64,000 nt of DNA from an uncultured Methanosarcinales archaeon (GTDB lineage: Archaea > Nanobdellota > Nanobdellia > Woesearchaeales > GW2011-AR9), in the NCBI GenBank assembly GCA_964604645.1, contig CAZRZP010000002.1:13739-77738 (forward strand), written 5' to 3'. A program made the translations under genes and the position numbers. This document shows positions 1 to 19,674 of the stretch, piece by piece (positions within the stretch are counted from its first letter, which is position 1; each line of letters starts with the position of its first letter). The notes beneath the pieces are model-generated. The model did not search any database, had not been told where the DNA came from, and saw only the letters and a program-made list of their open reading frames with translations.

Positions 1-1157
1 AAAATGAATTAAGAGCACCTTTATCATGCTGTCCAACAAACTATTGCTGGAATGGATATGCTTGCGTCAACCATGAAGCTGATTCAAATGCTGCTGAATT
101 TATCAACGGTAAAGCGCATAGGTGTGTTAAAGGAAGCTGGAAAGAAAAGATAATTCAAAAGGATTGGAATCATGATAAATGGGGTTTTTGTGATGCAAAT
201 GATCAATGTTTTGTAATGTCTTCAGCTTATGATAAAGTTGATGTAAAGAATAAAGCTGCTACAGCTTTAACTGGTGGTGTTCCAACTTGTATTAGCAATG
301 ATGAATATATTTTAGATAATTTATGTGATGGTGGAAATTGGACAACTAGAACTAAATTTTTAGCAGAGGAATTAATTAGTGATGGAACTGAATATACTTT
401 AGCATGTGGTTCTTATAATGATATTTTACCTGCTTTAGATAATAAAGAACAGCAGATTGCTGGTGGCAACCAGGGTACTGGGTTTGGAGGCAATAACCAA
501 GGCAGTTTATGTACTGGTTTTACAAAATTACCAGAAGACATTGCTAAAGGACAATACGGCTGTACAAATAATTTCTGTGTGCTAAAGAAGGGGAAAGATG
601 TGTTTGTTGGAACAACATTGAATAAAAATATTCCTACTGGTGGAACGGTACCAACTACAGCAACAGAATTATTTAAAGTTTCTAAGTGCAGTTCCGGAAA
701 GGATGATGAATTTGTATCTTGCACAACAGATAAAGGGGAAGCAAAATACAACAAAAAATTAAACACAATAATTTACAAAGAAACATCAGGAAATTTCTTT
801 ACAAAAGCAATAGATGGAATAGTAGACTTCTTCAAAGGATTATTTGTTAAAAATGATAATAATAAACTTATTAGCAAAATAGATAAATTCAGAGAAATAT
901 ATATCAAAAAGACCGACGATAAGACGATTAGAGGGGTCATTGAGATTGATCCGGAAACTGGGAAAGATACTTTAGTTATCGAATTTACTGGTTTTCAAAC
1001 ACCGATATGCGATTTTATTGAGAAGAAACCATTAAAAACGAAATTTGGAAAAGCACCTCATGAATGTGGGGGGGATAGCGATAAAACCATAGTCACAACT
1101 AACGATAAAGATAATATTAACGCACTCTGGAAGGAACTTACCATAAATCTGCGGTAA
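1..1157 (+). CDS. Cys-rich secreted/surface protein, 5' partial (reading frame open from window start; ORF track starts at an internal Met at 216)
   Basis: Frame 3 is open from nt 3 to the stop at 1157; CC and CxxC-rich, Gly/Thr-rich composition; no recognisable enzyme motifs. Confidence 0.55.
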   Translation, partial: NELRAPLSCCPTNYCWNGYACVNHEADSNAAEFINGKAHRCVKGSWKEKIIQKDWNHDKWGFCDANDQCFVMSSAYDKVDVKNKAATALTGGVPTCISNDEYILDNLCDGGNWTTRTKFLAEELISDGTEYTLACGSYNDILPALDNKEQQIAGGNQGTGFGGNNQGSLCTGFTKLPEDIAKGQYGCTNNFCVLKKGKDVFVGTTLNKNIPTGGTVPTTATELFKVSKCSSGKDDEFVSCTTDKGEAKYNKKLNTIIYKETSGNFFTKAIDGIVDFFKGLFVKNDNNKLISKIDKFREIYIKKTDDKTIRGVIEIDPETGKDTLVIEFTGFQTPICDFIEKKPLKTKFGKAPHECGGDSDKTIVTTNDKDNINALWKELTINLR

Positions 1158-1188: not shown

Positions 1189-3240
1189 ATGAAAAGAGGA
1201 CAGATAACAGTTTTTATAATCGTAGGTATAGTCGTCCTTTTTGTTTTCCTATCTTTATTTGCATTAAATGCTAAAGTTCAGGAAGCAGCATTAACAGATG
1301 AACAGGAAAGAATTTTTTCAAAAGCGTTCTATAAGGAAGGATTAAGGTTATTCGTAGAAGATTGTTTAGAAGATGAAATGAGTGAATCATTATTATTAAT
1401 TGGTAAGCAGGGAAGAATTTGGAAAGAGCAAGGCGGTTTTATTGAGTTTAATGATATAACGGGTAAAGAAATTCAGAACGAAAAGATTGCTTATGGTATT
1501 AAAAAAAAAGAATATTCTGAACCGGATGCTTATCCTTGTAAAAATGCTGATAACCCAACTAAATATTGTGAATATAAATATCCTGATGAAGCGCATTTTG
1601 GAAAAAAGCAGAGTCTTTCTTTGATAAATATTGAAAGAGATATCCAAGGTTATTTGAAGAAAAGTACAGTTGAATGTGTAACAGAATTTTTGGAGGAAAA
1701 GAAAGAATTAGCTAATGTTAATATTAAACCAGGAGAATTAACTATTAAATTAACAACTTTATTTGACGGATTTTCTGTTAAAGTGGATTATCCTTTAAAA
1801 TTTTCAGTTGGTGAGCAAGAATTTTTTACATTATCTAAATTTGATTTTTTTTACCCTTCCCAATTTCCAAGATTTTTCAGGCAAGCTGTCTCTGAACCGA
1901 TTTATTGGGACACTAAAGTAGTTTATTTTGATTATAGTAAAGAAACAATTCAAAAAGGTGGATTTGAACTGATAACGGACGGCGCGAAAACCCCAATTAC
2001 TTTTCCTCTGACTGGTTTAACTGGCATTACTATAGATAAAGATAATAAAGGTGATTTTACAGTTTTTACAATCAAATATCCGTATAAAGAAATTGTTTCT
2101 ATACCTGCTGAATCTACGGGACTTATTCCTAAAGAGTATACTTATTCTTTTATTAGAGAAAATAGGCCACCGGCTGTAGATTATGTTTCACAGTTAAGTT
2201 GTGTAGATGCTAAACATGATTATGTTGTGATTAAAGGAGATGCTAAGTACGGTTCATTGAAGATTATTGCTGATGCTAAAGATCCAGATGAGGAAAAACC
2301 AAAAATTAATTTGGAAGTTCCTAAAGGATGGGATAGTTATGATGAGAATGATAAGGATGAGTTGATATTTGAGATGAATGATTTTTCAAAAATTACTGCA
2401 GATATGTATACATTTACCATTTCAGCTTCTGATGATCAGAAATTATCTGATAAGCAGGAGATAAAAGTTTTGGTAATGGATAAGGAGGAAGGAGAGATTA
2501 GTGTTGAGACTCCTTTTAAGGACGCTGATGGAAAACAGATTGAGTATATCTCTTTAGAAGATCCATTCTTTGTTAAGGTTGATAAAGAAGCAGCAGTTGT
2601 TTTAACACAAGGCGGTAAATCAATTGATTATACTTTTTCTGCAGGAAGTTATGTTTGGCCGAATGCTGATTGTAAAAAAGAAGATTTTGAAAAAAGTAAG
2701 TGCGCTTTACCTGTAACTTTTGTAAATAAGAATTTAAATGTTGGTCCTGTAGAAGTTGCGTTAAAATCAAGTAAAAAAATCTGTACTGAAAATATTGATA
2801 CTTCTAAAAAAGTTAATGTTGAAGTGAAAGAATGTATTCCACATAAAAATTCTAAACATCCTTTTGGTTTCCCGTTTCATAAACTAGATGAAAATGGAAA
2901 TATTGGAAACGATATTCATCCTTTCTTAGCGACTCATGCTTGCTGCTCACTAGCTGGAAAAATTGAACCCACTTCAACAGTTTGCTATAAAGGAGATATT
3001 TTCTGTGATAATGGTCCAACTTTAAAACAAAAAGTGAAGTATTGTGATAATAGAAGAGGAAATACTTGTGATGGAACTACTGGTTCAGCTGATTACAAAC
3101 CAAATAAACGACCGGTATGTGGAGATCCAACGAAATATCCTTCTTGTCAAAATAAAGGCGTTGATGTGTCTTGTTACGGAAAGGAAGTTGGAAATGTAGG
3201 TCAAGGAACTTGTGACATTAAGTGTCAATATACCATATGA
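1189..3240 (+). CDS. Large Cys-rich surface protein with class III (type IV pilin-like) signal peptide
   Basis: N-terminus MKRGQ followed by a ~22-residue hydrophobic helix; C-terminal 150 aa very Cys-rich, similar in style to the upstream protein. Confidence 0.6.
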   Translation: MKRGQITVFIIVGIVVLFVFLSLFALNAKVQEAALTDEQERIFSKAFYKEGLRLFVEDCLEDEMSESLLLIGKQGRIWKEQGGFIEFNDITGKEIQNEKIAYGIKKKEYSEPDAYPCKNADNPTKYCEYKYPDEAHFGKKQSLSLINIERDIQGYLKKSTVECVTEFLEEKKELANVNIKPGELTIKLTTLFDGFSVKVDYPLKFSVGEQEFFTLSKFDFFYPSQFPRFFRQAVSEPIYWDTKVVYFDYSKETIQKGGFELITDGAKTPITFPLTGLTGITIDKDNKGDFTVFTIKYPYKEIVSIPAESTGLIPKEYTYSFIRENRPPAVDYVSQLSCVDAKHDYVVIKGDAKYGSLKIIADAKDPDEEKPKINLEVPKGWDSYDENDKDELIFEMNDFSKITADMYTFTISASDDQKLSDKQEIKVLVMDKEEGEISVETPFKDADGKQIEYISLEDPFFVKVDKEAAVVLTQGGKSIDYTFSAGSYVWPNADCKKEDFEKSKCALPVTFVNKNLNVGPVEVALKSSKKICTENIDTSKKVNVEVKECIPHKNSKHPFGFPFHKLDENGNIGNDIHPFLATHACCSLAGKIEPTSTVCYKGDIFCDNGPTLKQKVKYCDNRRGNTCDGTTGSADYKPNKRPVCGDPTKYPSCQNKGVDVSCYGKEVGNVGQGTCDIKCQYTI

Positions 3241-3656
3241 TATTAGAAATATCCATAATCATCATTGTTATCGGGGTAGTTGTATATCTTTTAAGAAAAA
3301 AAATAAAGAAAGTTGTGGAAGAAATACTGCATCCTGAACATCCATTGTGGTGGCTTTTACCTTCAGGAAGACAAGAAGAATTTAGACGAAAAAGACAAAT
3401 TAGAGAAAATAAAATTAAAATTCAAAAAGAACAATTATATCTGAAACAGCATGGGTTTCATGTGAGAAATTTATCACATCCGGATTTTGAAAAATTAAAT
3501 AAAATAATTCATACTCATCAACTTTCTAAAGTAGTTAGAGGAACGTTTGATAACTTAGATCAACTGATAAAGTTACTTGAAAAGAAGACTAGACAAAATA
3601 TAGAAGCTGAAGCGATAAAAGGTTCGTTAGATAAGCTAAGGAAAATGATCAAATAG
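3237..3656 (+). CDS. Small N-terminally membrane-anchored protein with charged coiled C-terminus (hypothetical)
   Basis: ATGA stop/start overlap with the previous gene at 3237-3240; single TM helix; K/E-rich tail. Confidence 0.4.
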   Translation: MILEISIIIIVIGVVVYLLRKKIKKVVEEILHPEHPLWWLLPSGRQEEFRRKRQIRENKIKIQKEQLYLKQHGFHVRNLSHPDFEKLNKIIHTHQLSKVVRGTFDNLDQLIKLLEKKTRQNIEAEAIKGSLDKLRKMIK

Positions 3657-3669: not shown

Positions 3670-3677
3670 TTTATAAA
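3670..3677 (+). promoter_or_regulatory. TATA-like box (tttataaa) upstream of the giant surface protein gene
   Basis: AT-rich motif 28-35 nt upstream of ATG 3705. Confidence 0.3.
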
Positions 3678-3704: not shown

Positions 3705-6700
3705 ATGGTCAACAAAAAAAGAGGTATCTTTTTTGTAGTTTTAGCGCTAGTGCTAGCTTTTTCTGTGAATGCTCAAACGGGTTGTGATATTGATCCGGCT
3801 TCCAGTACATTTTGTACATCAATTACTATTGATAATCCAATTCCTGGTAAGTTTATTGCAGGTGCTGCTTGTGATACTGTTGATGAGTGTGAAGAAGTCA
3901 GATGCGACCATGCTGATACTGCTGTTCTTCAATGTCAAGTCATGGAACTTGAGAAATGTAAATTTCTTGGAAAGCAAAAAAATGGGATAGAGGGAAAAGC
4001 AGTTACTCAGGAATCATTATGTACGGTGCAAGGCTGTTGTGAAGTTTCTAAGGGTGATAGCTGTACAGTTGTACAAACAACAAAAATTGGGTGCAATTAC
4101 ATTGGAATTTCTGGAGCTAAATTCACGAAGATGGTCGGCGGAAAATGCGGAACATGCAGCGGCGACTTAAAAAAAGTTTCAATTGCCTTTAAAGTTGTAG
4201 ATAAAGATGGAGCAGTTCAAGATGTTTCAGTAACTCCAATTGGTGGAACTGCTGTTAAAACAGATAGTAAGGGTGAAGTTGTTTTCAAAGATTTGTTGGC
4301 AAATGCAGATGCTCCATATGTGTTTAGCGTTTCAAAGTCTGGATATGTAGATCAATCTATTTCTGTAAAAACTGCAGATAAAGATATTGAGAAAGATGTT
4401 AAATTAGTAAAAATTGAAGGGGTTTTAGATTTAACTGTTAAAGTTTTAGATTTACAAAACAAACCAGTGACAGCGACAATATCACTTAAAGGGACTCAAT
4501 CACCTTCCCCAAAGGAAGGTTCTACTGTTAAATTTGATCAACTTCCAGCTGGAAAATATGATATTACTGCTTCAGCTGCCGGATATGAATCGCAGAAAAA
4601 AACTGAAACTTTTCAGAAAGACACAACACCTACAGTTACATTTCAACTAAAACCTACATCAAAAGTTGGAGTTACGGTAAAAACAGTTAGAGATAATCAG
4701 CCACAGCCAGGTGCAGAAATTTTCTTAAACGGTAAGTTTCACACCATATCACAATATCCAAATGGAGATAAATTCATTCCTTTGATAGTTACTAAAGACG
4801 GTCAAAAATTTACCATTTCAGCTAAATATAAAGAATATGCGAGTGATCCTTTAACTTTTACAATTAATAAAGGTCAGCAATTGACTAAAACTTTAATCTT
4901 GAAAAAGACAAAGGGAGAATGTACAATTGACGGAACTAACCCAACTAAAAAAGTTGCTAAATTAGATGGGAAAGCTGCTAAGGGTAAGGAAGAAGTTGAA
5001 TTAACTTGGACTAAACCCTGTCCGGAAGTTGATGGATATAAGCTGATTAAGGAATATAAGAAGGGAGATAAGGATGTAAAAGAGGAATTTACCTTACCTC
5101 TTGCACAAACAAAATTTTCCGATTCTGATGTAGAGTGGGGGGAAACATACAAATATTCAATTAAAGTAATTTATACTGATGGTAAAAAAGATGGAACAAC
5201 TGGAACTAGAATCTCAGAAGAAACATCAGTAGATGTTACTTTAGGTGCGGAAGCTTGTGCTGGTTTGTCTGTTGGTACACAGTTCTGCGATCCGAAAGAA
5301 CCAAATAAAATAAAGATTTGTGGCTCTAAACAAGAAATAATTGCTGGTGCCACATGTCAATCTGGTTTTTACTGCTCACCTTCTGGGAAAGGAGTTGCAT
5401 GTAAATCTGATGCTCAATGTAAAAAAAACAATGGTTTATTTTCATTATTTTCCACTAAAGAGAAATGTTATGGTTCTTTTACGGGAGGAAAACCAGCAAA
5501 TTTCTGTGTATATCAACCAACAAAATCTATTGTAAATTCATGTAAAAGTTGTGCAGATAAAGAAAAACCAATAAAATCATGTTACGATTATACTTCTGAG
5601 GATGCTTGTAAAGTTAACAGTTGTTTAACGGAAAAATGTAATTGGGTGAAACCTGGGCAAGCTGATGACGCGGTAATATCGGATTTTGGAAGTATTTATC
5701 AAGGTTATGATGAAAAATCAATGTTTGCCTTACCAGATTTTGGAAAAGGTTTCTGTGTTCCTGAAAAGAAATATGAAGCAAAAGATAAATGTGGATTATG
5801 TTCAAATGACGAAAAGATTTTTAACAATTTTTTCTGCACTGCGGATATTTGTACTGGATTAGGGTCTTGTTATTCTCAGTATAATTTGAATGAATGTAAA
5901 ACCTGTTCGGATATTCCAACTAGTAAAAACAATTGTGCTCAATATAAGACCAAACAAGAATGTACTGGAGGAAATGATAAATCTGGTGTTTCTAAAAATA
6001 CATTTGAAGTAATAGCTGGCTCTGAAGATAATTGTGCTTGGAACCGGTGTGGTTGGGATACAGATTCATTAAAATGTTTTAAAGATGGAAATGCGAATAA
6101 AAAATCTGATTGTAGTGAATTAAATGACGAAAGCGGAAATTGTAGAATTGACATAACTCCACCGGTAGCAAAATTGTTGACTAAAGATTTATCAATAATT
6201 TCACTTGGTGAACCAAAAGTTCAAATTGAAGTTGATGATACTCATGCAGTTAATAAAAAAACTCCTCAAAACTTACATTCACAAAGAAACAAAATAAAAG
6301 AATTAAAATATTGTTTAACTCCAGCTGTTGGAACAGATACTTGCACTTCTGATAAATATACCACTTTTTCATTTGATAATACTTTCTTATTCAAAGGAAC
6401 TGCTGATATAGATATAGCGAAACATTTTACTAAACCTATTCCAGGAATATTATACAAACTAAAATTCTTTGCTTTAGACAAATACCTTAATCAGGGAGAT
6501 GTGCAGGAATCATTACTCTTTATAGATACAACAATTCCTGATTTTAAAATTAATACGCAAGAAAATGTAATAGGAGATAAGGTTCAATTAACTGCTTACC
6601 TTTCAGATTTATCTGAACCGGCTTCATGTAAATTTTCTATTAAGCCAATAATAGCTCAAGATACACATACGCCGATTGTAGCAGCAAGAAAAGATAATGT

Positions 6701-9700
6701 AAAGCAAGCTAAGTTTACGTTAAGTGGAGTTCATTACGAATTAATTGTTGAATGTGTTGATGATTTTGGTAATAAGCAGGAGAAGAAGAAATCTTTAGTT
6801 TTCAATTTAGATCAAAAAATTCAAATAATTGCTCCTAAAATGAAACAAGTTCTTTCTAAGACTAGTTTACAGTTTGAAGTTAGAACAACTGTAGCTGCCG
6901 ATTGTGTTTTACAGCAAGTTAAACCGACAGCTCAACAAAAGGCAATCTTCAATAAACAAGACGGAACAACTTCTAAACATCACAAGACGGCTTTCATACA
7001 TGGATTTACGCAAGGAGAATATGCAGCTGCTTACAAAGCTGTTTGTACTGAACAATTAAACCCTAATGCCAAAAAGGTAGAAGCACATTTCCACTTCATA
7101 ATTGATTTCCTTTCTCCAAATACTAAAATTACTTTAGAAGAAGGTAGCAGGAAAGTTACTCCTATAAAATACGGTTGGGAAGAAATATTTGTAAATGAAG
7201 CTGAAGTAACTCTTGCATGTGATGCTGGATCTACTGGTTATCAATGTGACAAGATTAAATATTGTTTAGGAAAAGGTTGCAGTAACCCTAAAGACACAAA
7301 GTATCAAGATTACTCATCTACATTCTCAGTTAAGAAATCTACTCCTATTTGTTATTATTCAACTGATAAGGGGGGTAGTAAATTTCCAATAGTTTACTGT
7401 GGAGATATTTTAGTAAATGGTTTTGGAATTACCATGGAAAAACCTGAACCTCAGTTAATTGATGGTGAAGTTTGGGGATTCAGTTCCAAACCTAAGTTTG
7501 ACTGGCAACTAATTACTTTAGTTCCTTCTTTAGAATGCGCGTTTGATTTCAAGAAAGGTTTTGATTTTAAGAAAGTGTCAGCTAAACAAAAATTAACTAA
7601 AGATAAAGGGAAATATTTGTTTAAACAGTTCCCTGGAACCCTGCCGGCTTTTGATAGTAAGGGAAGCGTAAAAGAAGTATTCGTTAAATGTAATAATGCA
7701 GGAGAGATTAGTCCTGAACAGAAATTCTTTTTAGAATTTGATCCAACTCCTCCTAAAATCTTGGAAGCTAAAGCTACTCCAAAATCTCTAATTGAAGGAA
7801 ATTCTGTTCAATTAATGATAAAAACTGATGATCGTAGCATTTGTAAATTTTCAGATACTTCAAATAGCAAGTCAAGTGCAGAATTTCAAGCAATGAAATT
7901 TTCTTTTGCAAAAGATAAAGCCGGTAAGCCAATTTTTGGAAAAGAGCATAAAATTCCATTTGCAATTTCTTTTAAAGGTAAAAAGAAAAATTTCCGTCTT
8001 ACAACTCAATGTCAAAATGGGGCGGGTTTGTTAAGTAAACAGAAAGATATCTTATTTTCGGTTGATTATACGGTTGCAGGTAATATTGAAAAAATTTCAC
8101 ATGAAGGTGGTTATGTTAAAGATAAAAAAACTACTTTGAAAGTAAACACTAACAAAAATGCAAATTGTGAATATACAATTGACGGAAAAACAAAGAAATT
8201 TGATAAAACTGGTGGAACGGAACATAGTACTGTAATTGATTCCAGTAAGGAAGGAAAATATACTATTCCGGTTAAATGTACAATGGGTAAACAAGTTGCG
8301 AATGGTAAAGCTGGGTTTGAAGTTGACAGAACTGCTCCTAAAGTAAATAAAATTGATGATGGATTATACACTTGCGGTGCTGAAAACCTCTCAGTGATGG
8401 TTTATACTCAGGAAAAGAAAATTGCAAATTACGAATATGAAATCTATGATCATGGAGAAACTAAAAAAATTGGTGTGAAAAAGGTTTCAGGAATAGATTA
8501 CCCTAAATTAATTGCAAGTCCAAAATTAGTTCAAACAAAAAAAGTAGGAAAAAATACACCTTTGAAGATTAACATTCGTTCACTTTTCCCTGGCAAGAAT
8601 TTAAGTGATTTCTTTAATCATACATTACATGTTAAAGTCAGAGCTTCTGATGAAGCAGATAATATTGGAAAATATAACAAAAGTGATGGGTTCTTTTTGG
8701 TAAACAGTACTCATCCGGCTTGTGTTAAAGATACCTCTGCCCCTATACTTACAGTAAATCCTGTAGAAATCAAATCTTGTGAAGAGAGAGCAGTTAAAAT
8801 TACTTGTGAAGATGAAGTTGGCTGTAAAGAAATAGCATATGGAATTTCTGTAAAACCTACTTGTAATGCAACTGCACAATATAATGGTAAAAATATTTTA
8901 TTTAATACAACTTCATACTTATGTTATCAAGCAAACGATACTGTTAACAATAAAGCAACTGGAAAAGATTTAATTAAAGTTCCAGATGAAGATGGTGATG
9001 GGATTTTAGATTCTTGTGATAAATGTCCTAAAACGAAAGCTGGGAAGATAGCAGACGGGCAGGGTTGTACTGCTGGCCAGACGGCTTTAAATGAAACAAC
9101 TGGTAAAACTAATTTAACTGCCGCTCAGAAAAAAATTGATTCAGACAGTGACACTTTACCTGATGCTTGGGAGGATTATTATGATTCTTTAAGTTGCGAA
9201 TTAGATTCAAAGAAAGCTGATTCAGATGGCAATGGTATTTTGGACGGAGCTGAAGATTACGATAATGATGGTGCATCAAATTATCAAGAATATCTTAGCG
9301 ATACAGATCCGTGTGTAGAAGATGACGATTTCTTATTTGATGATACAAAGAAATTACCTGGAGCCACTCCTGTTACTGATGATAAAGCAGATAAACCTAC
9401 TACGCCAACTCTTCCTGGAGAAACAAAAAAAGAAACAGATTATCTGCCGTTAATATTATTCATTATTGGTTTATTGATGGTGTTAGGTGGAACTGGTTAT
9501 TTAATTTATTATTATAAATATAAGCAGCCTGAACCAACAACAGCTAAACCTTCTTTTAAGCCAAAAATAGCTGAACCATTACCTGAAAAAATAAGTCCAG
9601 CATTAAGAGGTCGGCGGAAAAAATTAAGGGAAAGAGCAAGAGAATCCATCTTTGGTTTATTCAGTAAAAAATCAGATACAATTCCACATGTCGAATCTGC

Positions 9701-9935
9701 TTTAGACAGCAGAAAAACTCCGCATGGAAAGATTAAAGCAGCTGCAGATTCATACGTTAAACATAAGGGTTTAATCAAGCCAGGATTGAAATCTCATGAA
9801 AAATCTATCTTTGATAAATTAGAATCTCTTTCTAAGAAAAGTAAAAATAAAAGTATCAATTCCGTTATAGATAAAGGTGAAGCGGAAAACTTATTTGCAA
9901 AACTAAAGAAAATAACTGAGAAGAGGAAGAAGTGA
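3705..9935 (+). CDS. Giant (2076 aa) cell-surface protein: signal peptide, Cys-rich modules, PEGA/carboxypeptidase-regulatory-like beta domains, FN3-like domain, thrombospondin type 3-like Ca-binding Asp repeats, C-terminal TM anchor with basic tail
   Basis: N-terminal hydrophobic signal (FFVVLALVLAFSVNA); DxDxDGxxD repeats at nt ~8980-9340; TM helix LPLILFIIGLLMVLGGTGYLIYYY at nt 9443-9514 followed by a K/R-rich tail. Confidence 0.75.
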   Translation: MVNKKRGIFFVVLALVLAFSVNAQTGCDIDPASSTFCTSITIDNPIPGKFIAGAACDTVDECEEVRCDHADTAVLQCQVMELEKCKFLGKQKNGIEGKAVTQESLCTVQGCCEVSKGDSCTVVQTTKIGCNYIGISGAKFTKMVGGKCGTCSGDLKKVSIAFKVVDKDGAVQDVSVTPIGGTAVKTDSKGEVVFKDLLANADAPYVFSVSKSGYVDQSISVKTADKDIEKDVKLVKIEGVLDLTVKVLDLQNKPVTATISLKGTQSPSPKEGSTVKFDQLPAGKYDITASAAGYESQKKTETFQKDTTPTVTFQLKPTSKVGVTVKTVRDNQPQPGAEIFLNGKFHTISQYPNGDKFIPLIVTKDGQKFTISAKYKEYASDPLTFTINKGQQLTKTLILKKTKGECTIDGTNPTKKVAKLDGKAAKGKEEVELTWTKPCPEVDGYKLIKEYKKGDKDVKEEFTLPLAQTKFSDSDVEWGETYKYSIKVIYTDGKKDGTTGTRISEETSVDVTLGAEACAGLSVGTQFCDPKEPNKIKICGSKQEIIAGATCQSGFYCSPSGKGVACKSDAQCKKNNGLFSLFSTKEKCYGSFTGGKPANFCVYQPTKSIVNSCKSCADKEKPIKSCYDYTSEDACKVNSCLTEKCNWVKPGQADDAVISDFGSIYQGYDEKSMFALPDFGKGFCVPEKKYEAKDKCGLCSNDEKIFNNFFCTADICTGLGSCYSQYNLNECKTCSDIPTSKNNCAQYKTKQECTGGNDKSGVSKNTFEVIAGSEDNCAWNRCGWDTDSLKCFKDGNANKKSDCSELNDESGNCRIDITPPVAKLLTKDLSIISLGEPKVQIEVDDTHAVNKKTPQNLHSQRNKIKELKYCLTPAVGTDTCTSDKYTTFSFDNTFLFKGTADIDIAKHFTKPIPGILYKLKFFALDKYLNQGDVQESLLFIDTTIPDFKINTQENVIGDKVQLTAYLSDLSEPASCKFSIKPIIAQDTHTPIVAARKDNVKQAKFTLSGVHYELIVECVDDFGNKQEKKKSLVFNLDQKIQIIAPKMKQVLSKTSLQFEVRTTVAADCVLQQVKPTAQQKAIFNKQDGTTSKHHKTAFIHGFTQGEYAAAYKAVCTEQLNPNAKKVEAHFHFIIDFLSPNTKITLEEGSRKVTPIKYGWEEIFVNEAEVTLACDAGSTGYQCDKIKYCLGKGCSNPKDTKYQDYSSTFSVKKSTPICYYSTDKGGSKFPIVYCGDILVNGFGITMEKPEPQLIDGEVWGFSSKPKFDWQLITLVPSLECAFDFKKGFDFKKVSAKQKLTKDKGKYLFKQFPGTLPAFDSKGSVKEVFVKCNNAGEISPEQKFFLEFDPTPPKILEAKATPKSLIEGNSVQLMIKTDDRSICKFSDTSNSKSSAEFQAMKFSFAKDKAGKPIFGKEHKIPFAISFKGKKKNFRLTTQCQNGAGLLSKQKDILFSVDYTVAGNIEKISHEGGYVKDKKTTLKVNTNKNANCEYTIDGKTKKFDKTGGTEHSTVIDSSKEGKYTIPVKCTMGKQVANGKAGFEVDRTAPKVNKIDDGLYTCGAENLSVMVYTQEKKIANYEYEIYDHGETKKIGVKKVSGIDYPKLIASPKLVQTKKVGKNTPLKINIRSLFPGKNLSDFFNHTLHVKVRASDEADNIGKYNKSDGFFLVNSTHPACVKDTSAPILTVNPVEIKSCEERAVKITCEDEVGCKEIAYGISVKPTCNATAQYNGKNILFNTTSYLCYQANDTVNNKATGKDLIKVPDEDGDGILDSCDKCPKTKAGKIADGQGCTAGQTALNETTGKTNLTAAQKKIDSDSDTLPDAWEDYYDSLSCELDSKKADSDGNGILDGAEDYDNDGASNYQEYLSDTDPCVEDDDFLFDDTKKLPGATPVTDDKADKPTTPTLPGETKKETDYLPLILFIIGLLMVLGGTGYLIYYYKYKQPEPTTAKPSFKPKIAEPLPEKISPALRGRRKKLRERARESIFGLFSKKSDTIPHVESALDSRKTPHGKIKAAADSYVKHKGLIKPGLKSHEKSIFDKLESLSKKSKNKSINSVIDKGEAENLFAKLKKITEKRKK

Positions 9936-10498
9936 TGTTGTCAAAAAAAGGGATGGCAATTGGCCAAATCTTTATTTTCATTGTTGCTGCTGTTACTTTT
10001 ACTTTAGTTCTTTTATTTGGTTATCAAAAAATAACTGGTTTTTTAGAGACGGGAGAACAAGTTGAATTTATTCAATTTAAAAATCATTTAGAATCCTCCA
10101 TTCAAAAGATTTATACTGAATATGGTGCAATTAGAAAAACTACTTTTCATCCTCCTGGGCAGTATACGCAAGTTTGTTTTGTTGATTTTGAGTTTGTACA
10201 TAAGAAAACAGATATTGATTTACTCTGCGAAAAAGACCCTTTTGCTTGTGGTACTTTAGAAGATGCAAGTGCAAAATTTGAAGATATTACAGCCAATGTT
10301 TTTCTAACCCCTATTGCTCCAGTTCCTATTAAAACGCATAAGATTAAGGTAGAAGCACTGGAAAAAGCAAGTGGTTTTGATAAACATATCCCAAAAGGTT
10401 TTCTCTGTTTGTCTATCTCTGGTGGACAATTTGAATTAACTATGGAAGGTATGGGGGATCACACTCTTCTCTGGGAGCCAAAGAAAGATGGCAAATAA
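9935..10498 (+). CDS. Pilin-like protein (class III signal peptide)
   Basis: MLSKKGMAIGQ + hydrophobic helix; TGATG overlap with the giant gene (a GTG at 9932 is an alternative start). Confidence 0.5.
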   Translation: MLSKKGMAIGQIFIFIVAAVTFTLVLLFGYQKITGFLETGEQVEFIQFKNHLESSIQKIYTEYGAIRKTTFHPPGQYTQVCFVDFEFVHKKTDIDLLCEKDPFACGTLEDASAKFEDITANVFLTPIAPVPIKTHKIKVEALEKASGFDKHIPKGFLCLSISGGQFELTMEGMGDHTLLWEPKKDGK

Positions 10499-11576
10499 AG
10501 GACAAGTTCAAGTTACTTTTAATTGGGTTTATGTATTAGTTGCTGGTGCTATTATACTTTTATTCTTTGCTGGTCTAGTTATTAGACAGAAAGCTGTATC
10601 TGAACAGAAGTTAAGTATTGATTTAACACAGACGATGGAATCTATCTTTACTGCTGCTGGAGTTTCTGAAAAAACTAAAAATTTTATTGACATTTCTGGT
10701 TTATCGGATAAAGTTTTAGAATTTAGTTGTTCAGATGGAGTAAGTGAATTTGGTCTTCAAGAAAGTCCAAGTAGAATTAGGAATGCTTTAGATCCGTTAT
10801 TTGCTCCAAGAAGTATTAAAGCTCCAAGATTGATATTATGGAGTCTTCCATATAAAATCCCCTATAAAATTATTGATTTTTTGTTTGTTACTTCTTCTAC
10901 AACAAAAATATTTTTTGTGGATAGTGCAACACCAGATCCGTTTGTTGATGAATTTACAAAAGCAACTGCAGACACCAACCCTTTACTTCAAATTAATAGA
11001 GCGACGGTCCAAAGTTTAAACGAAATATTACCTGAAAAGAATTATCATTTGAAAATTGTTTTTTTTGATTCTCCAACATTAACTCTTCCACCAAATTTAG
11101 TGCCGATGCTTGACTCGGCCATTACAGCGGTAAATATTAAAGGCGATGAAATTAGTTTTTATAAAAAGAAAGGTAGCAAGTTTGTTTTAGATGGAACTAC
11201 AAAGTTAGTCTCTTTACCTGCTAAATTAGGTGAAACTTCTAAAAATGATGCAGCCAAATATGCAGCAATTTTTGCACATGATAAAGAGATGTATGAATGT
11301 AATATGCAAAAAGCATTTAGAAGATTTAAGATAATTAATGAAGTATATGGGAATAAACTCGGTTTAATGATAAAGAAGTATAAAGATAGTAAGGATATTT
11401 GTGGACCTTTATTGGAAGAAGGTGTAAAACCAAAATTTGGAAATTTAGTAAGTGCAGTTAACCTTTGTGTCGGTGGAGGGATAATGGATACATGTTCCTC
11501 TATCATAACACCAGCAATAGAATTAAGGACAGCAAATAATGAATTCATACTAAAAAGCTGTATCGGGTTATATTAA
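10488..11576 (+). CDS. Pilin-like secreted protein (class III signal peptide)
   Basis: MANKGQVQV + 20-aa hydrophobic helix; overlaps the upstream gene. Confidence 0.6.
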   Translation: MANKGQVQVTFNWVYVLVAGAIILLFFAGLVIRQKAVSEQKLSIDLTQTMESIFTAAGVSEKTKNFIDISGLSDKVLEFSCSDGVSEFGLQESPSRIRNALDPLFAPRSIKAPRLILWSLPYKIPYKIIDFLFVTSSTTKIFFVDSATPDPFVDEFTKATADTNPLLQINRATVQSLNEILPEKNYHLKIVFFDSPTLTLPPNLVPMLDSAITAVNIKGDEISFYKKKGSKFVLDGTTKLVSLPAKLGETSKNDAAKYAAIFAHDKEMYECNMQKAFRRFKIINEVYGNKLGLMIKKYKDSKDICGPLLEEGVKPKFGNLVSAVNLCVGGGIMDTCSSIITPAIELRTANNEFILKSCIGLY

Positions 11577-11578
11577 TA

Positions 11579-12094
11579 ATGTTGAAAAACAGATTTAAAC
11601 AAAAAAAAGGACAAGTACAGATGTCGGAGACAATTGCAGTCATGTTTATTTTCTTCATTTTAGTTGTTTTTGGATTAATTTTTTATTTTAAATTTTCTAC
11701 AATAGCAGCGCAGCAAGCGGAGGAAGAATTGTTTGGTCAGAAAGCAATTGATACAACTACAAAAGTTATTTTTTTACCTGAATTAATTTGTAGTGATGGT
11801 GAAGCTGAAACGCAAGATTTTTGTTTAGATATGATGAAATTGAAGAGCATGGATGCTGTTACAAAAAAACACTTGAGTGATTATTATTTTGATTTGTTTG
11901 GATACGCTAACATTTCGGTAACTCAAATTTATCCTGTACCAACCGATCAATCAACTTTTACAATTTATTCAAAAAAATTAGACTCATTTACTCGTAAAGA
12001 TCCGACTTTTTTTACAGTATCACTTAAAGATTATCTTACTGGAAGTCAACCAAGTTTTGGTTTAGGTTATGTAACGGTGGAGGTTTATTCTTGA
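11579..12094 (+). CDS. Pilin-like protein (class III signal peptide)
   Basis: KQKKGQVQMSE + hydrophobic helix. Confidence 0.6.
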   Translation: MLKNRFKQKKGQVQMSETIAVMFIFFILVVFGLIFYFKFSTIAAQQAEEELFGQKAIDTTTKVIFLPELICSDGEAETQDFCLDMMKLKSMDAVTKKHLSDYYFDLFGYANISVTQIYPVPTDQSTFTIYSKKLDSFTRKDPTFFTVSLKDYLTGSQPSFGLGYVTVEVYS

Positions 12095-12651
12095 AATTAA
12101 TAAAATCTAAGAAAGCACAGATGGAAATCATTGGTTTAGTTGTAATTGTAATTTTAATCTCTGTTGGTATGCTTTTTTTGACAAAATTCGCTTTACAAGA
12201 TGAACCGGATAAAAAGATTTTTACTAGAAAAGAATTAGCTGCAAGTACAATGGCGGCTTTAATGAAAGCTACTGCTCCTGATTGTAAAGGAAGTTTAACT
12301 TCTATTCCACAAGTTGAAAAACAATTATTGGAAGATTGTGCTGTTCTAAAACTAAATCCGGGAGCTGATTCTAATTATCAATGTACTTTAGGTAACGGTT
12401 TAGTCGATAGCTGTAATTATCTTAAAGCTAAACTTACTGAAATTCTTGAAACTACATTAGGCAAATGGGGTAAAAGCTATGAATTAAGAACGATTATTGT
12501 TAAAAAAGAAGGAACTTTGAAAGGAGATGAAGTTCTAACGATTGTTGGTAAAGATGGTTGCACGGCTAAAGAAAGAGATACTTCAGGTAATTTCTTCATA
12601 CCCTCAACGAAATTAGGGCTAATTCAAAGTGTTTTATACGTTTGTGAATAG
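12091..12651 (+). CDS. Pilin-like protein (class III signal peptide)
   Basis: KSKKAQMEIIGLVVIVILISV; ATGA overlap with the upstream gene. Confidence 0.6.
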   Translation: MKLIKSKKAQMEIIGLVVIVILISVGMLFLTKFALQDEPDKKIFTRKELAASTMAALMKATAPDCKGSLTSIPQVEKQLLEDCAVLKLNPGADSNYQCTLGNGLVDSCNYLKAKLTEILETTLGKWGKSYELRTIIVKKEGTLKGDEVLTIVGKDGCTAKERDTSGNFFIPSTKLGLIQSVLYVCE

Positions 12652-12727: not shown

Positions 12728-13069
12728 ATGATGATGAAAAAAGGTCAAGGTCTTTCTTTAAATGTAATAATAGTTGCTGCTCTTGCATTAATCGTTTTAG
12801 TTGTGCTAATTGCAGTCTTTACAGGGCGAATTGGATTATTTACTGAAGGGGTTAGTAAGGAAGCTGGTGCAGAATTAGCAAAGATGAAAATTACATATGG
12901 TGAATGTGAACCTACTACTGCTAAAGAATCAGATTTTATGAGCACTTACTCAAAAGCGGCTGATGATACGGCTAGAGGTACTGCGGCAGATGCTTATGAA
13001 AAAGAGATTGCTCGCTGTAAATCTTTTGACACAGAACAACTTTGTGGACAAGGCGCCTGCAAGTGGTGA
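12728..13069 (+). CDS. Small pilin-like protein (class III signal peptide)
   Basis: MMMKKGQGLS + hydrophobic helix; preceded by a GGTGA RBS and TATA-like box. Confidence 0.6.
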   Translation: MMMKKGQGLSLNVIIVAALALIVLVVLIAVFTGRIGLFTEGVSKEAGAELAKMKITYGECEPTTAKESDFMSTYSKAADDTARGTAADAYEKEIARCKSFDTEQLCGQGACKW

Positions 13070-13332
13070 TGATGAAGAAAGCTACTAGCCAGATGTTATG
13101 GGTTGTAGTTGGAGCGGTCATGGCTTTAGTTGTTTTGACTGTTTTATTATTTATTTTTACCAAAAATACCGGGAAAGTACAACTCGGCTTTGAAGATTGT
13201 GCAAGTAAATCCGGCCAATGTATAACAAAAGCTAAATGCAGTAATCAAGAAGGTCGGGTGATACCAACTTTTTCCTGCAATAATGATCCTGACGTTTCAG
13301 ATGATAATAAAAAAATCTGTTGTTTCCCATGA
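13069..13332 (+). CDS. Small pilin-like protein with Cys-rich C-terminus
   Basis: TGATG overlap; MMKKATSQM + hydrophobic helix; 7 Cys in the last 45 aa. Confidence 0.5.
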   Translation: MMKKATSQMLWVVVGAVMALVVLTVLLFIFTKNTGKVQLGFEDCASKSGQCITKAKCSNQEGRVIPTFSCNNDPDVSDDNKKICCFP

Positions 13333-13346
13333 GAGAAACTGTCGAA

Positions 13347-13421
13347 ATGATAGCAAAGTTAATCCTTCTGGCAGTCGGAGCGGGAGTGCTTTTCTTAATA
13401 ATTTGGCGACTAAATCCATAA
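13347..13421 (+). CDS. Possible 24-aa single-TM micropeptide
   Basis: ATG-initiated MIAKLILLAVGAGVLFLIIWRLNP lying between two pilin-like genes; too short to call with confidence. Confidence 0.2.
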   Translation: MIAKLILLAVGAGVLFLIIWRLNP

Positions 13422-13444
13422 AAGGAACGACCGCCGTTTCTAGT

Positions 13445-13552
13445 ATGTTAGTTTATCTACTGATAGCGGCAATTGTGTTGATTATCATATTTTTTTTAGT
13501 TGGAAGAAATGCAGATTTTGGTAAAAGTATCATTCAGGGGTTATTTAGCTGA
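13445..13552 (+). CDS. Possible 35-aa single-TM micropeptide, translationally coupled to the next gene
   Basis: MLVYLLIAAIVLIIIFFLVG...; its stop overlaps the ATG of the 13552 gene (TGATG). Confidence 0.25.
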   Translation: MLVYLLIAAIVLIIIFFLVGRNADFGKSIIQGLFS

Positions 13553-14313
13553 TGGGATTAGGTTCTGTACTGGTGGGGCTTATTGTTACTTTGCTATTGT
13601 TTAGTGTGATTTATTTTGGTTTCTTAGATTCAGATACTGGTGCAATTTTTTTAGCGGATGATGCTTACCGTCAGCAGCTAGAAAATGCTTTAGCTAAAGA
13701 AAAGAAAGAATTTCAAGTGAAGGAAAATACTGAACTTCTTGATAGGTTTGTTTCTGATATTAATAAAATGAAAGGTAAAAAAGCTTGTTTTGCAAGTTAT
13801 ACTCCATTTCCAGCTCTACAAAATAAAAAAATTGACATCAGTTACTCGAGTGGAAATACAAGAATTAGATTTTGGGATGGCAAACAATCAATTGCTAAAC
13901 AAGATTTAGACATAATTCCTTGTGTAATTGGAGGATCAGGTAGTGTAACAAAAAACTTTGATGATATTTATCTGAATAATAAAGATTGGAAAGAAAAAAT
14001 CAAACAAATTAATAGTAACCATTACACAATTGCCGGTCAAATTACCATTTCGGAGGATGACGGTGGAGTTTCAGGTTTAACAGAAAATAGAATTAATTAT
14101 GGTCATGGGGTAGTAGATTTTGAAGATGCAAACTACTTATACACGCCAGATGGAAAACATATATGTTTCTTTCCAACAGTAGATGGTGATGATACTTGTG
14201 ATGGTTTCCAACAAGAAGGGTTAGATGATGATTGTTTAGGGGAAGCCGATGTTTCTGACACTAACTCTATTCCAAGCCAATTAGCAGAAGGAAAATTAAA
14301 AAGATGTAGTTAA
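13552..14313 (+). CDS. Membrane-anchored secreted protein (pilin-like N-terminal helix)
   Basis: N-terminal hydrophobic helix MGLGSVLVGLIVTLLLFSVIYF; Asp/Cys-rich C-terminus. Confidence 0.5.
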   Translation: MGLGSVLVGLIVTLLLFSVIYFGFLDSDTGAIFLADDAYRQQLENALAKEKKEFQVKENTELLDRFVSDINKMKGKKACFASYTPFPALQNKKIDISYSSGNTRIRFWDGKQSIAKQDLDIIPCVIGGSGSVTKNFDDIYLNNKDWKEKIKQINSNHYTIAGQITISEDDGGVSGLTENRINYGHGVVDFEDANYLYTPDGKHICFFPTVDGDDTCDGFQQEGLDDDCLGEADVSDTNSIPSQLAEGKLKRCS

Positions 14314-14336
14314 CTATTAAAAAAACTATTAAAAAA

Positions 14337-15239
14337 ATGAAAAGACCTATCTCAAAAATAATTAGGACTAAAAAAGGGGGAGTTCCTTACACTTTAGTGA
14401 TTTTTATAGGTGTAATTCTAAGTGCAGGAGTTTTGTTATATTTAGTATCTTTAATTATATCTGGATTTGGGGAAAAATCAGTTGAAGAAGTTTGTCGCGG
14501 TAATGTAATTTTTAGAACGTCAGAGTTTTTTGGAGATCAACGTTTAGGTCCGCTTTTATGTCAAACCCAAAAAGTTGAGTTAAGGGGTAATAAGGAAACT
14601 GTTAAAGAACAGATAGCTGAACTGATGCGGAAATGTTGGTATATGTTTGATGAAGGGAAAAGTATTGACGCTTTAGATGGAGAATCAGTTAAGAAAGCAT
14701 TAGGTTGGGAAGATAACAAAAATGGTTGTTTTACTTGTTTCATTGCTGATACTGCTAAAATTGATGGTGGACCGATTTTACCTCACGAATTATTTACTTA
14801 CTTAGAAGATGTAGATCACCCAACTGCTAAAGGCTTAAAGTATTTAGATTATATCCAGTCTTACGGTGGCGATGGTGCGGTTCTAACATTAAGTCCAGTT
14901 ATGGATAATCAAGTTTATGGAATTTCATTTTTATCAAAATCAAAAGATGACAGTAAGTGGACTTGGGGTGACAGCGCAGCTACGGCAGCTTTGGTTACCG
15001 GCACTTTAGCAGTTAAAGCCGGAGTGGCTATTTGCGGGACAGTTATTGGCTGTCCAGTTGGTGTTATTGTTGGTGGTGCTGGTGCCGCAGTTACAGGACT
15101 TGGTTATTTAGCTACAGGAGCATATCATGATGCGAAAAATTTAATTTATGAAGAAGAAAGAGCTGTAAGTACAATTACTTTTGATACACTACAATCGATT
15201 GAAAGGGCTGGATGTGAACAAAAAGAGGGGATACGATGA
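14337..15239 (+). CDS. Pilin-like secreted protein with C-terminal Gly/Ala-rich hydrophobic segment
   Basis: RTKKGGVPYTLVIFIGVILSAGVLLYLV; C-terminal region GTVIGCPVGVIVGGAGAAVTGLGYLATG. Confidence 0.55.
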   Translation: MKRPISKIIRTKKGGVPYTLVIFIGVILSAGVLLYLVSLIISGFGEKSVEEVCRGNVIFRTSEFFGDQRLGPLLCQTQKVELRGNKETVKEQIAELMRKCWYMFDEGKSIDALDGESVKKALGWEDNKNGCFTCFIADTAKIDGGPILPHELFTYLEDVDHPTAKGLKYLDYIQSYGGDGAVLTLSPVMDNQVYGISFLSKSKDDSKWTWGDSAATAALVTGTLAVKAGVAICGTVIGCPVGVIVGGAGAAVTGLGYLATGAYHDAKNLIYEEERAVSTITFDTLQSIERAGCEQKEGIR

Positions 15240-16600
15240 AAAAAGGATTTATTGGCGGGAAAATAGTTGATTTGATAATAGCTTTACTTATTTTATTAGC
15301 ATTAGGAAGTTTCTTTTTTGATATTGAAGATATAAGAGGTTTTTTTGGAGAAACAGCTGCAAAAGTAAAACTAGATTGTGATGCAGATGGGGTTGGTTAT
15401 CCATTAGATAAATGTCCTTGTTTAGATGAAGGTAAAATCCGTAATTCAGATAGATCTCTATTGGGCTGTCCATCTGCCATAAAAAATTCTAAGGAAGCGG
15501 CAAAGGATAAAGATACTTGTTATAAATATGAGCATGACGGGAAATTTTTTGATAAATGTCAGGCAGATGATAAAACTGATTGTTTAACTAGATGTGAAGC
15601 AATGCATTTCAAAAGTGAAAAGGAAACTGAACAGAAATTAGCTGCTTTGGATACCGAGAGTGATTTAGTTATTTCTGATTTAAAAATAGATGGAAAGACG
15701 ATTGAGGAACATAACGGAAAATATAAGATTGATTTCAGCGGTGCCCCAGACAAACCAATAAATTTAGAGGGAAGTATAAGTAATTTAGGTACTGAAGCAG
15801 TTACAAGAACGTTCTTTTTGAAAATAAATATATGTGAACTTAAAACTAATGGTAGGTGTAAAACTAAAATAGTTTATAATAATGATTTTAGTGGAAATAA
15901 ACTAGCTTTTTCTGAAACTCTTGCACCAGGACACAAACAATCTTTTGATTTTCATACTCTTGTAGGCTACAAAGGAGATTATTGTGATAGCAAGAAAGAA
16001 AGCGAATGTATATTAGAATTAATTATAGACCCAGATAATGAAATTGGAGAGATAGGAGAAACTAATAATAAACAGAAATTAACTTTATCTGTAGAGAATC
16101 AATTAGTTTCAAATTCATTCAAGAGATTTCAGATTGAAATAATCAATGCCGGACCTAAAGATGGACCTCTAATACAAAGGTATTGTCCAATAGAATTAGG
16201 AGTACCAGACTATGCTGATTGCCTCTTGAAATTATCACAAGAATACCAGGGTGTTGATGGAGAATTTCCAAAAAATATCAGGAGCGATGGCAATTGTTGG
16301 GTGTTAAGTACTGATTTTGATGTTATTGATGAAGATGTTGGAGCGGGTGCATTTAAACAAGGTTATGTTATCAAGCATATCTCTAGTCAACATTTGAATC
16401 CATTTGAAATATATCACGAGACGGATGAAGATTCAAAAAATAATTTTATTGATCAAAGTAGAGTTTGGCAGGCAGATTCTAAAGGGGATTTAATTTGCAA
16501 TAAGAATTTTTGGAACTTATGCGATCAAGTCAATCAAGATCAAATTTTATTCATAGGAAGTACACCGTACACTTGTGATGGTAAGGAATGGAAACAATAA
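15236..16600 (+). CDS. Pilin-like large secreted protein (class III signal peptide)
   Basis: MKKGFIGGKIVDLIIALLILLALG; ATGA overlap with the upstream gene. Confidence 0.55.
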   Translation: MKKGFIGGKIVDLIIALLILLALGSFFFDIEDIRGFFGETAAKVKLDCDADGVGYPLDKCPCLDEGKIRNSDRSLLGCPSAIKNSKEAAKDKDTCYKYEHDGKFFDKCQADDKTDCLTRCEAMHFKSEKETEQKLAALDTESDLVISDLKIDGKTIEEHNGKYKIDFSGAPDKPINLEGSISNLGTEAVTRTFFLKINICELKTNGRCKTKIVYNNDFSGNKLAFSETLAPGHKQSFDFHTLVGYKGDYCDSKKESECILELIIDPDNEIGEIGETNNKQKLTLSVENQLVSNSFKRFQIEIINAGPKDGPLIQRYCPIELGVPDYADCLLKLSQEYQGVDGEFPKNIRSDGNCWVLSTDFDVIDEDVGAGAFKQGYVIKHISSQHLNPFEIYHETDEDSKNNFIDQSRVWQADSKGDLICNKNFWNLCDQVNQDQILFIGSTPYTCDGKEWKQ

Positions 16601-16603
16601 ACA

Positions 16604-17269: not shown

Positions 17270-17270
17270 A

Positions 17271-17663: not shown

Positions 17664-17672
17664 GTGTGGAAA

Positions 17673-18113: not shown

Positions 18114-18114
18114 A

Positions 18115-18537: not shown

Positions 18538-18539
18538 AA

Positions 18540-19586: not shown

Positions 19587-19633
19587 TACTTCTAACCAAG
19601 GAACCCCTTAATGTGTTCTCTACTATACAAATC

Positions 19634-19641: not shown

Positions 19642-19674
19642 CTTTTTGAATGACTTTTTTAGTGGTGAGGTCCT

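Follow-up and report, generated by a model that had tools for sequence, protein, structure and literature searches.

A giant, cysteine-rich, membrane-anchored, putative surface protein encoded ahead of four pilin-like genes in Woesearchaeales-type archaea

The giant gene and its five-gene unit

A stretch of 64,000 nt from contig CAZRZP010000002.1 (assembly GCA_964604645.1; the whole stretch is hereafter called the window), assigned to the Woesearchaeales in GTDB, carries an open reading frame (ORF) encoding a 2076-aa protein, here called the giant, and directly downstream four genes encoding pilin-like proteins (Table 1). The window has a G+C content of ca. 33% and carries archaeal genes, of which Pfam identified those for eRF1, ribosomal protein S3Ae, and an archaeal-type TruB/Cbf5; RadA and RPA were recognized by reading the translations. 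The reading frame of the giant is uninterrupted between the ATG at 3705 and the TGA at 9933–9935, and eight public contigs, the longest of 402 kb, carry an identical 2076-aa protein call. Since exact copies are present on public contigs and full-length relatives exist, the ORF is neither the product of a frameshift nor a chance ORF.

Our comparison covered 47 distinct related loci taken from collections of genomes and metagenomes. Of 46 loci, 43 have a near-invariant box, ACATTTATAAAC, 33–38 nt 5′ of the giant start; at random positions of the same loci, the frequency of such a box is 5%. From the position of the box, the leader would be very short and the promoter of the giant gene strong and conserved, and the boxes resembling TATA and the transcription factor B recognition element (BRE) probably act as promoters. 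No such TATA-like box was found between the giant and gene +4 in the window, and the gaps within this stretch of five genes are −1, −11, +2, and −4 nt. Given the conserved TATA box and the lack of another until after gene +4, the giant is taken to be the first gene of a five-gene unit (3705–12651). A preliminary description of this DNA had seen the giant as embedded in a pilin-like operon; instead, it leads the unit with a TATA box of its own.

The overlap between the stop codon of the giant and the start codon of the next pilin-like gene (TGATG), noted in the same description, was confirmed. Of the 37 loci with sufficient downstream sequence, 33 carry, directly after the giant, the same set of four genes, encoding proteins of ca. 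180, 370, 170, and 190 aa, and a stop/start overlap of the giant and gene +1 occurs in 16 of 41 loci, which upholds the proposed coupling to pilin-like genes. The N-termini of all four proteins consist of [KR]-[GA], Q, and a hydrophobic helix of ca. 20 residues, and the Q and an E are invariant in the family alignments. Identity among relatives is ca. 45% for the four pilin-like proteins versus ca. 33% for the giant. No match to the four was found in Pfam, NCBIfam, or the PDB.

The next TATA-like box after that of the giant (CATTTATAAG) lies 32 nt before position 12728. There, a gene at 12728–13069 encodes a 113-aa protein whose highly conserved N-terminus (KKGQGLSLNVIIVAAL / KKGQGLSLNVIIVAALALIVLVVL) is almost identical across the distant loci L007, L008, L009, and L010; this protein may be a major pilin. 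With it begins a second unit, in which about ten pilin-like genes are tightly packed (12728–19586, including 13042–13332). In locus L009, a nucleotidyltransferase/HEPN pair and a 799-aa reverse-strand gene (18873–22655) stand right after the four pilin-like genes, and in L011 a reverse transcriptase (RVT_1) gene (20176–21810) occupies the same place. These insertions indicate that the five-gene unit is separable from the second pilin unit.

Table 1 Features of the giant gene and its neighbours in the window.
Feature	Amino acids	Position (nt)	Strand	Basis or remark
Upstream small bitopic membrane protein	144 aa (139 aa from ATG 3237)	3222..3656	+	Membrane helix and giant-type tail, no head
TATA-like box (TTTATAAA) with purine-rich BRE-like stretch just 5′		3670..3677	+	35 nt before the giant ATG; putative promoter
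Giant ORF	2076 aa	3705..9935	+	ATG 3705 to TGA 9933-9935
N-terminal signal	1-23	3705..3773	+	MVNKKRG, 16 hydrophobic residues, VNA|Q
Head, N-terminal 14-Cys module	26-151	3780..4157	+	Homologous to the upstream mini ectodomain in relatives
Three prealbumin-like (CarboxypepD_reg / PEGA-like) β-sandwiches	157-403	4173..4913	+	Pfam, PDB profiles, AlphaFold2 pLDDT 70-87
FN3-like β-sandwich	420-512	4962..5240	+	Sub-threshold Pfam fn3; AlphaFold2 pLDDT 80-88
Second Cys-rich block	518-813	5256..6143	+	30 Cys, three CxxC
Stalk, about eight to nine Ig-like β-sandwiches	816-1758	6150..8978	+	AlphaFold2 all-β, most blocks pLDDT 70-88
Membrane-proximal TSP type-3-like acidic loops, putative calcium sites	1759-1870	8979..9314	+	Regex motifs, invariant Asp
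Acidic, then Thr/Pro-rich linker	1871-1913	9315..9443	+	Read from the translation
Single C-terminal membrane helix	1914-1937	9444..9515	+	Hydrophobicity; same relative position in ca. 80 representatives
Basic cytoplasmic tail domain	1938-2076	9516..9932	+	Net charge +22; conserved in the family alignment
Pilin-like gene +1	187 aa	9935..10498	+	Class III-type N-terminus; start overlaps giant stop (TGATG)
Pilin-like gene +2	362 aa	10488..11576	+	N-terminus KG|Q, then hydrophobic helix
Pilin-like gene +3	171 aa	11579..12094	+	N-terminus KKG|QVQMSE, then hydrophobic helix; invariant Q and E
Pilin-like gene +4, last of unit	186 aa	12091..12651	+	N-terminus KKA|QME, then hydrophobic helix

The family of the giant

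An initial word-indexed search returned three clusters, and a search seeded with a relative returned eleven further full-length members. An exhaustive profile search with a three-sequence profile of aa 815–1915 gave 5563 matches, of which 345 had E ≤ 1e-30, including ca. 80 near-full-length representatives; the family representatives used in this study are the 81 near-full-length members of 50%-identity clusters. The 81 proteins are 1900–2300 aa long and contain 72–90 cysteines (mode 78). All named relatives belong to Candidatus Woesearchaeota or Nanoarchaeia, many further members lie on metagenome contigs, and our literature searches retrieved no description of the family. According to Castelle et al. 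2021 (PMC8204110), numerous families specific to DPANN are unannotated and either membrane-bound or extracellular.

Unlike adhesins that expand by repeats, the members have a fixed length and unique, individually conserved domains. These features point to a part of defined geometry.

Topology and targeting

The giant has only two hydrophobic segments (aa 5–25 and 1910–1937). The first belongs to an N-terminal signal, as claimed in the preliminary description. The signal is most likely of the Sec/signal peptidase I type. A class III (type IV pilin) signal would have a [KR]-[GA] site directly followed by a hydrophobic helix of ca. 20 residues; KRG is nearly invariant in the family, but the hydrophobic stretch is short (16 aa) and, like that of Sec signals, runs up to an AxA-like site in front of GCY. 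Most of the 81 representatives show the pattern K[KR]RG, ca. 18 hydrophobic residues, an AxA-like site, and GCY.

At the other end, the reported Thr/Pro-rich linker before the membrane helix was recovered as an acidic and then Thr/Pro-rich stretch. The helix exists as well, with coordinates of 9444–9515 instead of the 9443–9514 first given, and the Lys-rich cytoplasmic tail is indeed basic (38 Lys + Arg versus 16 Asp + Glu), its length being 139 aa and not ca. 150 aa. Throughout the family, the membrane helix is single and usually ca. 150–160 aa from the C-terminus (range, roughly 90–320), and a cytoplasmic domain of ca. 140 aa is conserved in ca. 80 representatives. Processing by an archaeosortase, for which a check of PGF-CTERM-like signals had been advised, is not indicated: no PGF motif precedes the helix, the tail has 139 aa versus the few basic residues of such signals, and no NCBIfam match was obtained. 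The topology signals and the prealbumin-like, FN3-like, and TSP3-like modules agree with the description of the giant as a secreted, membrane-anchored, multi-module surface protein, and it is probably located at the cell surface.

Beta-sandwich domains and the stalk

We searched the giant, also in separate segments, and 15 relatives against Pfam with gathering cut-offs of 32.3 (CarboxypepD_reg), 20.8 (PEGA), 25 (fn3), and 25 bits (TSP_3). We also ran AlphaFold2 on the two halves of the giant with alignments of five and six sequences, which gave a mean predicted local distance difference test score (pLDDT) of 63 and 54. CarboxypepD_reg (PF13620) matched aa 244–316 in two stretches with 39.5 bits, above its cut-off, and was found in 15 of 15 relatives (best E, 1e-31). 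PDB profile matches of the prealbumin-like region were to SusC/TonB N-terminal and carboxypeptidase domains at E of ca. 1e-3. PEGA (PF08308) reached 18.1 bits in the giant, below its cut-off, and matched 12 of 15 relatives at E ≤ 0.01. Since the PEGA match overlaps that of CarboxypepD_reg, it is read as a sign of a related fold and not of a separate predicted domain. Thus, of the PEGA/carboxypeptidase-regulatory-like domains proposed earlier, the carboxypeptidase-regulatory type holds and PEGA falls short in the giant itself.

At the place of the FN3-like module proposed earlier, aa 427–495 were modelled as a confident β-sandwich, and FN3 arrays were among the Foldseek matches. The fn3 model (PF00041) scored 21.2 bits at aa 427–495 (E, 3.4e-4), under its cut-off, and matched two of 15 relatives. 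In total, AlphaFold2 gave confident β-sandwiches over aa 156–570, comprising three prealbumin-like domains, one FN3-like domain, and one small β unit.

The central 940 aa, designated the stalk, had no match in Pfam, NCBIfam, or PDB sequences. Its immunoglobulin (Ig)-like domains are set apart by D-x-T/S-x-P boundary motifs. Together, about twelve sandwiches and the two Cys-rich modules would add up to a fibre several tens of nanometres long in the extended state.

Foldseek searches of the PDB with both models returned generic tandem Ig/FN3/macroglobulin (MG) arrays only, with template modelling (TM) scores of ca. 0.1, among them the GhpA grappling hook, the α-2-macroglobulin family, titin, contactins, Gram-positive ancillary pilins, and SlaB. 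The best matches, namely Aureispira GhpA, Gram-positive ancillary pilins, Bacillus anthracis TIE, and the MG arrays of α-2-macroglobulins, are beads-on-a-string β-sandwiches as in the giant; with TM scores of 0.04–0.34 (mostly ca. 0.1) and 7–14% identity, they indicate a generic fold class and give no evidence of family membership. A specific kinship to α-2-macroglobulins or to the GhpA grappling hook was therefore rejected.

Membrane-proximal acidic loops

Three acidic loops were matched by regular expression between the stalk and the linker: DEDGDGILD (aa 1761–1769), DSDSDTLPD (1812–1820), and DSDGNGILD (1839–1847). All three fit the thrombospondin type-3 (TSP3) repeat pattern D-x-D-x-D-G-x-x-D-x-x-D/E, and a fourth acidic stretch (D1851–D1855/N1859) was read by eye. 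The Asp residues of the loops are invariant in 15 of 15 relatives. Pfam TSP_3 scored 14.5 bits on the giant (E, 0.03), under its cut-off; TSP3_bac matched three of 15 relatives (best E, 6.6e-5), and the TSP3 part of PA1041 matched the giant at E of 5e-4. This weak PA1041 match was the sole one in an NCBIfam scan of the giant and nine neighbours. The proposed TSP3-like Asp repeats are thus present as acidic loops with invariant Asp, while the Pfam model remains under its cut-off. The loops are predicted to bind calcium.

The first loop continues as C-D-K-C-P-K-T-K-A-G-K-I-A-D-G-Q-G-C, which is the repeat pattern of bacterial OmpA/PA1041-type TSP3 repeats. The giant therefore shares with the OmpA-family and PA1041-type anchors the motif D-x-D-x-D-G-x-x-D-x-C-D-x-C-P-x-T-x-x-G-x-x-x-D-x-x-G-C. 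In contrast to these anchors, it has no OmpA-like peptidoglycan-binding domain, and its repeats adjoin an archaeal membrane helix.

Cysteine-rich modules

The giant contains 76 cysteines, clustered at aa 27–151 and 518–813, in accordance with the multiple Cys-rich modules first described. Nearly all of them are invariant among the 15 relatives. The head (aa 26–151) had no match in Pfam, NCBIfam, or PDB sequence profiles, and its AlphaFold2 pLDDT was below 40; two of the 16 head cysteines are missing from the giant of the window. The second block (aa 518–813) had no match in Pfam, NCBIfam, or PDB sequences, and its pLDDT was below 40 after aa ca. 570.

The second block contains twice the pattern C-x2-C...C-x-x-Y...C...C-x-W-x-x-C-x-W. 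Five CxxC motifs are found in the whole protein, at aa 613, 696, and 731 (nt ca. 5541–5906) and at aa 148 and 1771. The cysteines presumably form disulfides or metal sites, a choice that matters in organisms of anoxic habitats.

Head and tail shared with a small membrane protein

The cytoplasmic tail of the giant had no match in Pfam, NCBIfam, or the PDB, and BLASTP against the small protein encoded upstream (3222–3656) was not significant (E, 1.1). However, profile–profile comparison by hhalign revealed homology between the tail and the cytoplasmic part of this protein (probability, 96.3%; E, 1.6e-9; score, 59), a relation visible only at this level; thirty column-shuffled profiles gave a maximum score of 20.9. 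In many relatives, the upstream gene encodes a 290–460-aa protein, here called the mini, which consists of a signal, a 16-Cys ectodomain, a Ser/Thr/Pro linker, a membrane helix, and a giant-type tail (L015 53–1348, L016 1491–2603, L019 6831–7883, L026 4–1203, L036 6642–7811, L039 3267–4220, and L074 6384–7313). The mini ectodomain is homologous to the giant head (hhalign probability, 99.7%; E, 3.5e-26; shuffled controls, ≤ 14.5), and a hidden Markov model (HMM) of the head matched giants and minis only, across loci.

Judged by these alignments, the giant is composed of a head, a stalk of ca. 1750 aa, an anchor, and a tail, and the mini of the same head, anchor, and tail. The mini of the window lineage has lost the head and kept the membrane helix and tail. 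Two putative domains without described relatives are thereby defined, a 14–16-Cys head and a basic cytoplasmic tail, and their modular use suggests that the protein binds with its outward-facing end and couples with its inward-facing end.

A head on a long stalk combined with a cytoplasmic domain is a receptor-like layout, and the giant might accordingly be an independent adhesin binding hosts or surfaces, or a receptor signalling through its tail, co-regulated with the pilin-like genes and forming no complex with them. The head and tail common to giant and mini fit such a protein, as does the modular character of the cluster in L009, where unrelated genes part the five-gene unit from the second pilin unit. 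However, no recognizable enzymatic or signalling domain was found in the tail by Pfam and PDB searches, and the four-gene adjacency, which is kept at 25–35% protein identity with frequent translational coupling, suggests stoichiometric partners. We regard an independent adhesin or receptor as distinctly unlikely.

Proposed function of the giant

Conservation of the membrane helix and of the cytoplasmic domain speaks for retention of the giant in the cell membrane, and the conserved, often translationally coupled adjacency to the four genes suggests that their products are stoichiometric partners. We propose that the giant is a fibrillar tether or adhesin that is retained in the membrane and works together with a minor-pilin-like complex, and we put the probability of this reading at roughly 0.5; adhesion and physical association with the pilin-like proteins are both presumed in it. 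The gene would be transcribed from its own BRE/TATA promoter as the first of five, the other four encoding proteins with class III (type IV pilin-like) N-termini. Its product would be a membrane protein of type I that remains fixed in the cell membrane of the archaeon and projects a long, rigid, fibre-like ectodomain. From the outside in, the predicted order is the 14-Cys head, three prealbumin-like domains, the FN3-like domain, the second Cys-rich block, eight or nine Ig-like sandwiches, the TSP3-type loops, the acidic and Thr/Pro linker, the helix, and the tail. In this role of an anchored tether or adhesin on a Woesearchaeota-like DPANN cell, its binding end would be the head, held tens of nanometres off the membrane, and the tail would couple it to a cytoplasmic or membrane partner, which may include the small upstream membrane protein with the same tail domain. 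The four pilin-like proteins would form a minor-pilin-like complex assembling beside or onto the giant.

Several observations weigh against this proposal. The AlphaFold2 models come from shallow alignments (five to six sequences), both Cys-rich blocks are unmodelled, and the acidic-loop region and linker are likewise without a usable model. The invariant KRG in the signal could mean that a class III peptidase cleaves after it. The downstream proteins are called pilin-like solely on account of their N-termini. No pilus ATPase Walker motif was found by regular expression within ±8 kb of the giant at the 47 related loci, and a Pfam scan of 20 larger ORFs at 22–64 kb of the window yielded housekeeping genes and no pilus ATPase, platform protein, or prepilin peptidase. 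Strict conservation of length and cysteines and unique, non-repeated domains would suit a structural envelope component equally well, and S-layer genes, too, typically have a strong conserved promoter.

Of the roles suggested in the preliminary description, those of tip adhesin and sheath fit poorly, the single C-terminal helix and the ca. 140-aa cytoplasmic domain being kept in ca. 80 representatives and arguing for membrane retention. A tip role could be rescued if the giant were a PilY1-like adhesin released from its anchor by proteolysis and the four downstream proteins were core minor pilins priming a filament. Both systems combine a large non-pilin protein with four minor-pilin-sized genes (FimU-PilVWX for PilY1; GspH-K in type II secretion) and share calcium-type acidic loops; PilY1 is calcium-regulated. 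The adjacency to the four genes is very conserved. The gene order, with one of the four markedly larger (ca. 370 aa), mirrors that of PilY1 and its minor pilins and of GspH-K (PMC4858521). However, PilY1 is soluble after signal cleavage and contains vWA and β-propeller domains, whereas the giant has neither domain and keeps a membrane helix and cytoplasmic domain, which would be pointless family-wide in a released protein. No vWA, β-propeller, DUF2341, or PilC-type domain was found by Pfam in the giant and 15 relatives, no cleavage motif is evident, and the mini paralogue has the same anchor. We consider a released tip adhesin very unlikely.

Closer counterparts of the giant have been predicted in archaea. 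Archaeal type IV pilus (T4P) loci encode predicted large, C-terminally anchored, Cys-rich "S-layer-like" proteins, as well as signal-bearing adhesins beside minor-pilin sets (Makarova, Koonin & Albers 2016, PMC4858521), and large Ig-rich adhesin-like proteins occur in several archaeal type IV filament superfamily (TFF) subsystems (2026 preprint, bioRxiv 10.64898/2026.04.22.720090). The giant resembles these proteins in lying beside genes with class III signals and in its secretion signal, single C-terminal helix, many conserved cysteines, and arrays of Ig-like β-sandwiches; in all of them, the function is a predicted one. The T4P-locus families come from Thermoproteales, Methanococci, and other lineages, and the giant family, among named matches, from Woesearchaeota and Nanoarchaeia, the comparison being one of location and topology. 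What sets the giant apart is a fixed architecture of ca. 2050 aa with a novel head, with TSP3-type loops, and with a conserved cytoplasmic domain that recurs in a small neighbour, and no ATPase or platform genes are adjacent to it. As a class, the giant is unlikely to surprise a specialist, but its conservation, its promoter, the strict five-gene unit, and the two new domains recommend it for studies of surface construction and attachment in these archaea.

Alternatively, the giant might be the main envelope protein itself, a stalked, C-terminally anchored canopy protein of the tetrabrachion/SlaB type in principle, encoded beside pilin genes since filaments must cross the layer. Makarova et al. 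(2016, PMC4858521) use the term "S-layer-like" for large, C-terminally anchored, Cys-rich proteins of T4P loci. The C-terminal membrane anchor with its membrane-proximal Thr/Pro-rich linker, N-glycosylation sequons clustered at aa 1561–1803, the very strong conservation of length and cysteine pattern, the conserved strong TATA/BRE promoter, and SlaB among the Foldseek matches are all consistent with such a role. On the other hand, no S-layer family was matched in the Pfam (giant and 15 relatives) or NCBIfam (giant) scans, a PGF-CTERM-type signal is absent from the giant, and a conserved 140-aa cytoplasmic domain is unusual among S-layer proteins. Moreover, a short paralogue has the same head and tail, and the gene does not stand alone but heads a tightly coupled operon with four pilin-like genes. 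In a metatranscriptome study, separately annotated "S-layer protein genes" were among the top expressed Woesearchaeota genes (PMC11606122). We judge it unlikely that the giant is the main envelope protein.

The membrane-retained tether can be extended to the neighbouring proteins. Tentatively, and with odds that we put well below even, the giant, the mini, and the four pilin-like proteins may constitute an unrecognized surface apparatus of Woesearchaeales-type DPANN, in which a membrane-spanning tether would present one Cys-rich head at two heights and a basic cytoplasmic domain would connect the interior with contacts made outside, such as those with a host cell. Woesearchaeota and their relatives, which rank among the most abundant of the uncultured archaea, are thought to live attached to other cells; to our knowledge, no attachment structure has been described for them. 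Being large, strictly conserved, and equipped with its own promoter and a coupled four-gene set, the giant family is a concrete candidate for a core envelope or attachment component of Woesearchaeota. If it is just one more fibrillar surface protein, several hundred proteins labelled "carboxypeptidase regulatory-like domain-containing" would still gain a better annotation.

Other genes around the giant

Further genes for Cys-rich proteins lie upstream of the giant. A 1675-aa Cys-rich secreted protein (L001 2426–7453; its C-terminus corresponds to window 216–1157) has a KKRG-type signal like that of the giant, and a 683-aa protein (window 1189–3240) begins with a class III-type N-terminus (MKRGQITVFIIVGIV...) and is Cys-rich at its C-terminus; no Pfam match was obtained for either. 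Still farther upstream on the same contig, outside the window, a 668-aa protein (L001 1–1772) contains MopE-type Cu-binding/Cys-Asp repeats (PF11617), and in L010 and L011 proteins of ca. 780 aa encoded upstream of the giant gave similar PF11617 matches. Just before this cluster of surface-protein genes, two small genes that overlap each other (67 and 87 aa; L001 1892–2358) look by eye like an antitoxin and a RelE/ParE-type toxin.

Scans of the 64-kb window for tRNAs and Rfam families gave no match at the gathering threshold. A gene at 26254–27483 encodes a 409-aa protein with a LysM (peptidoglycan/chitin-binding) domain in this archaeal genome; attachment to bacteria has been suggested for some Woesearchaeota (PMC8204110).

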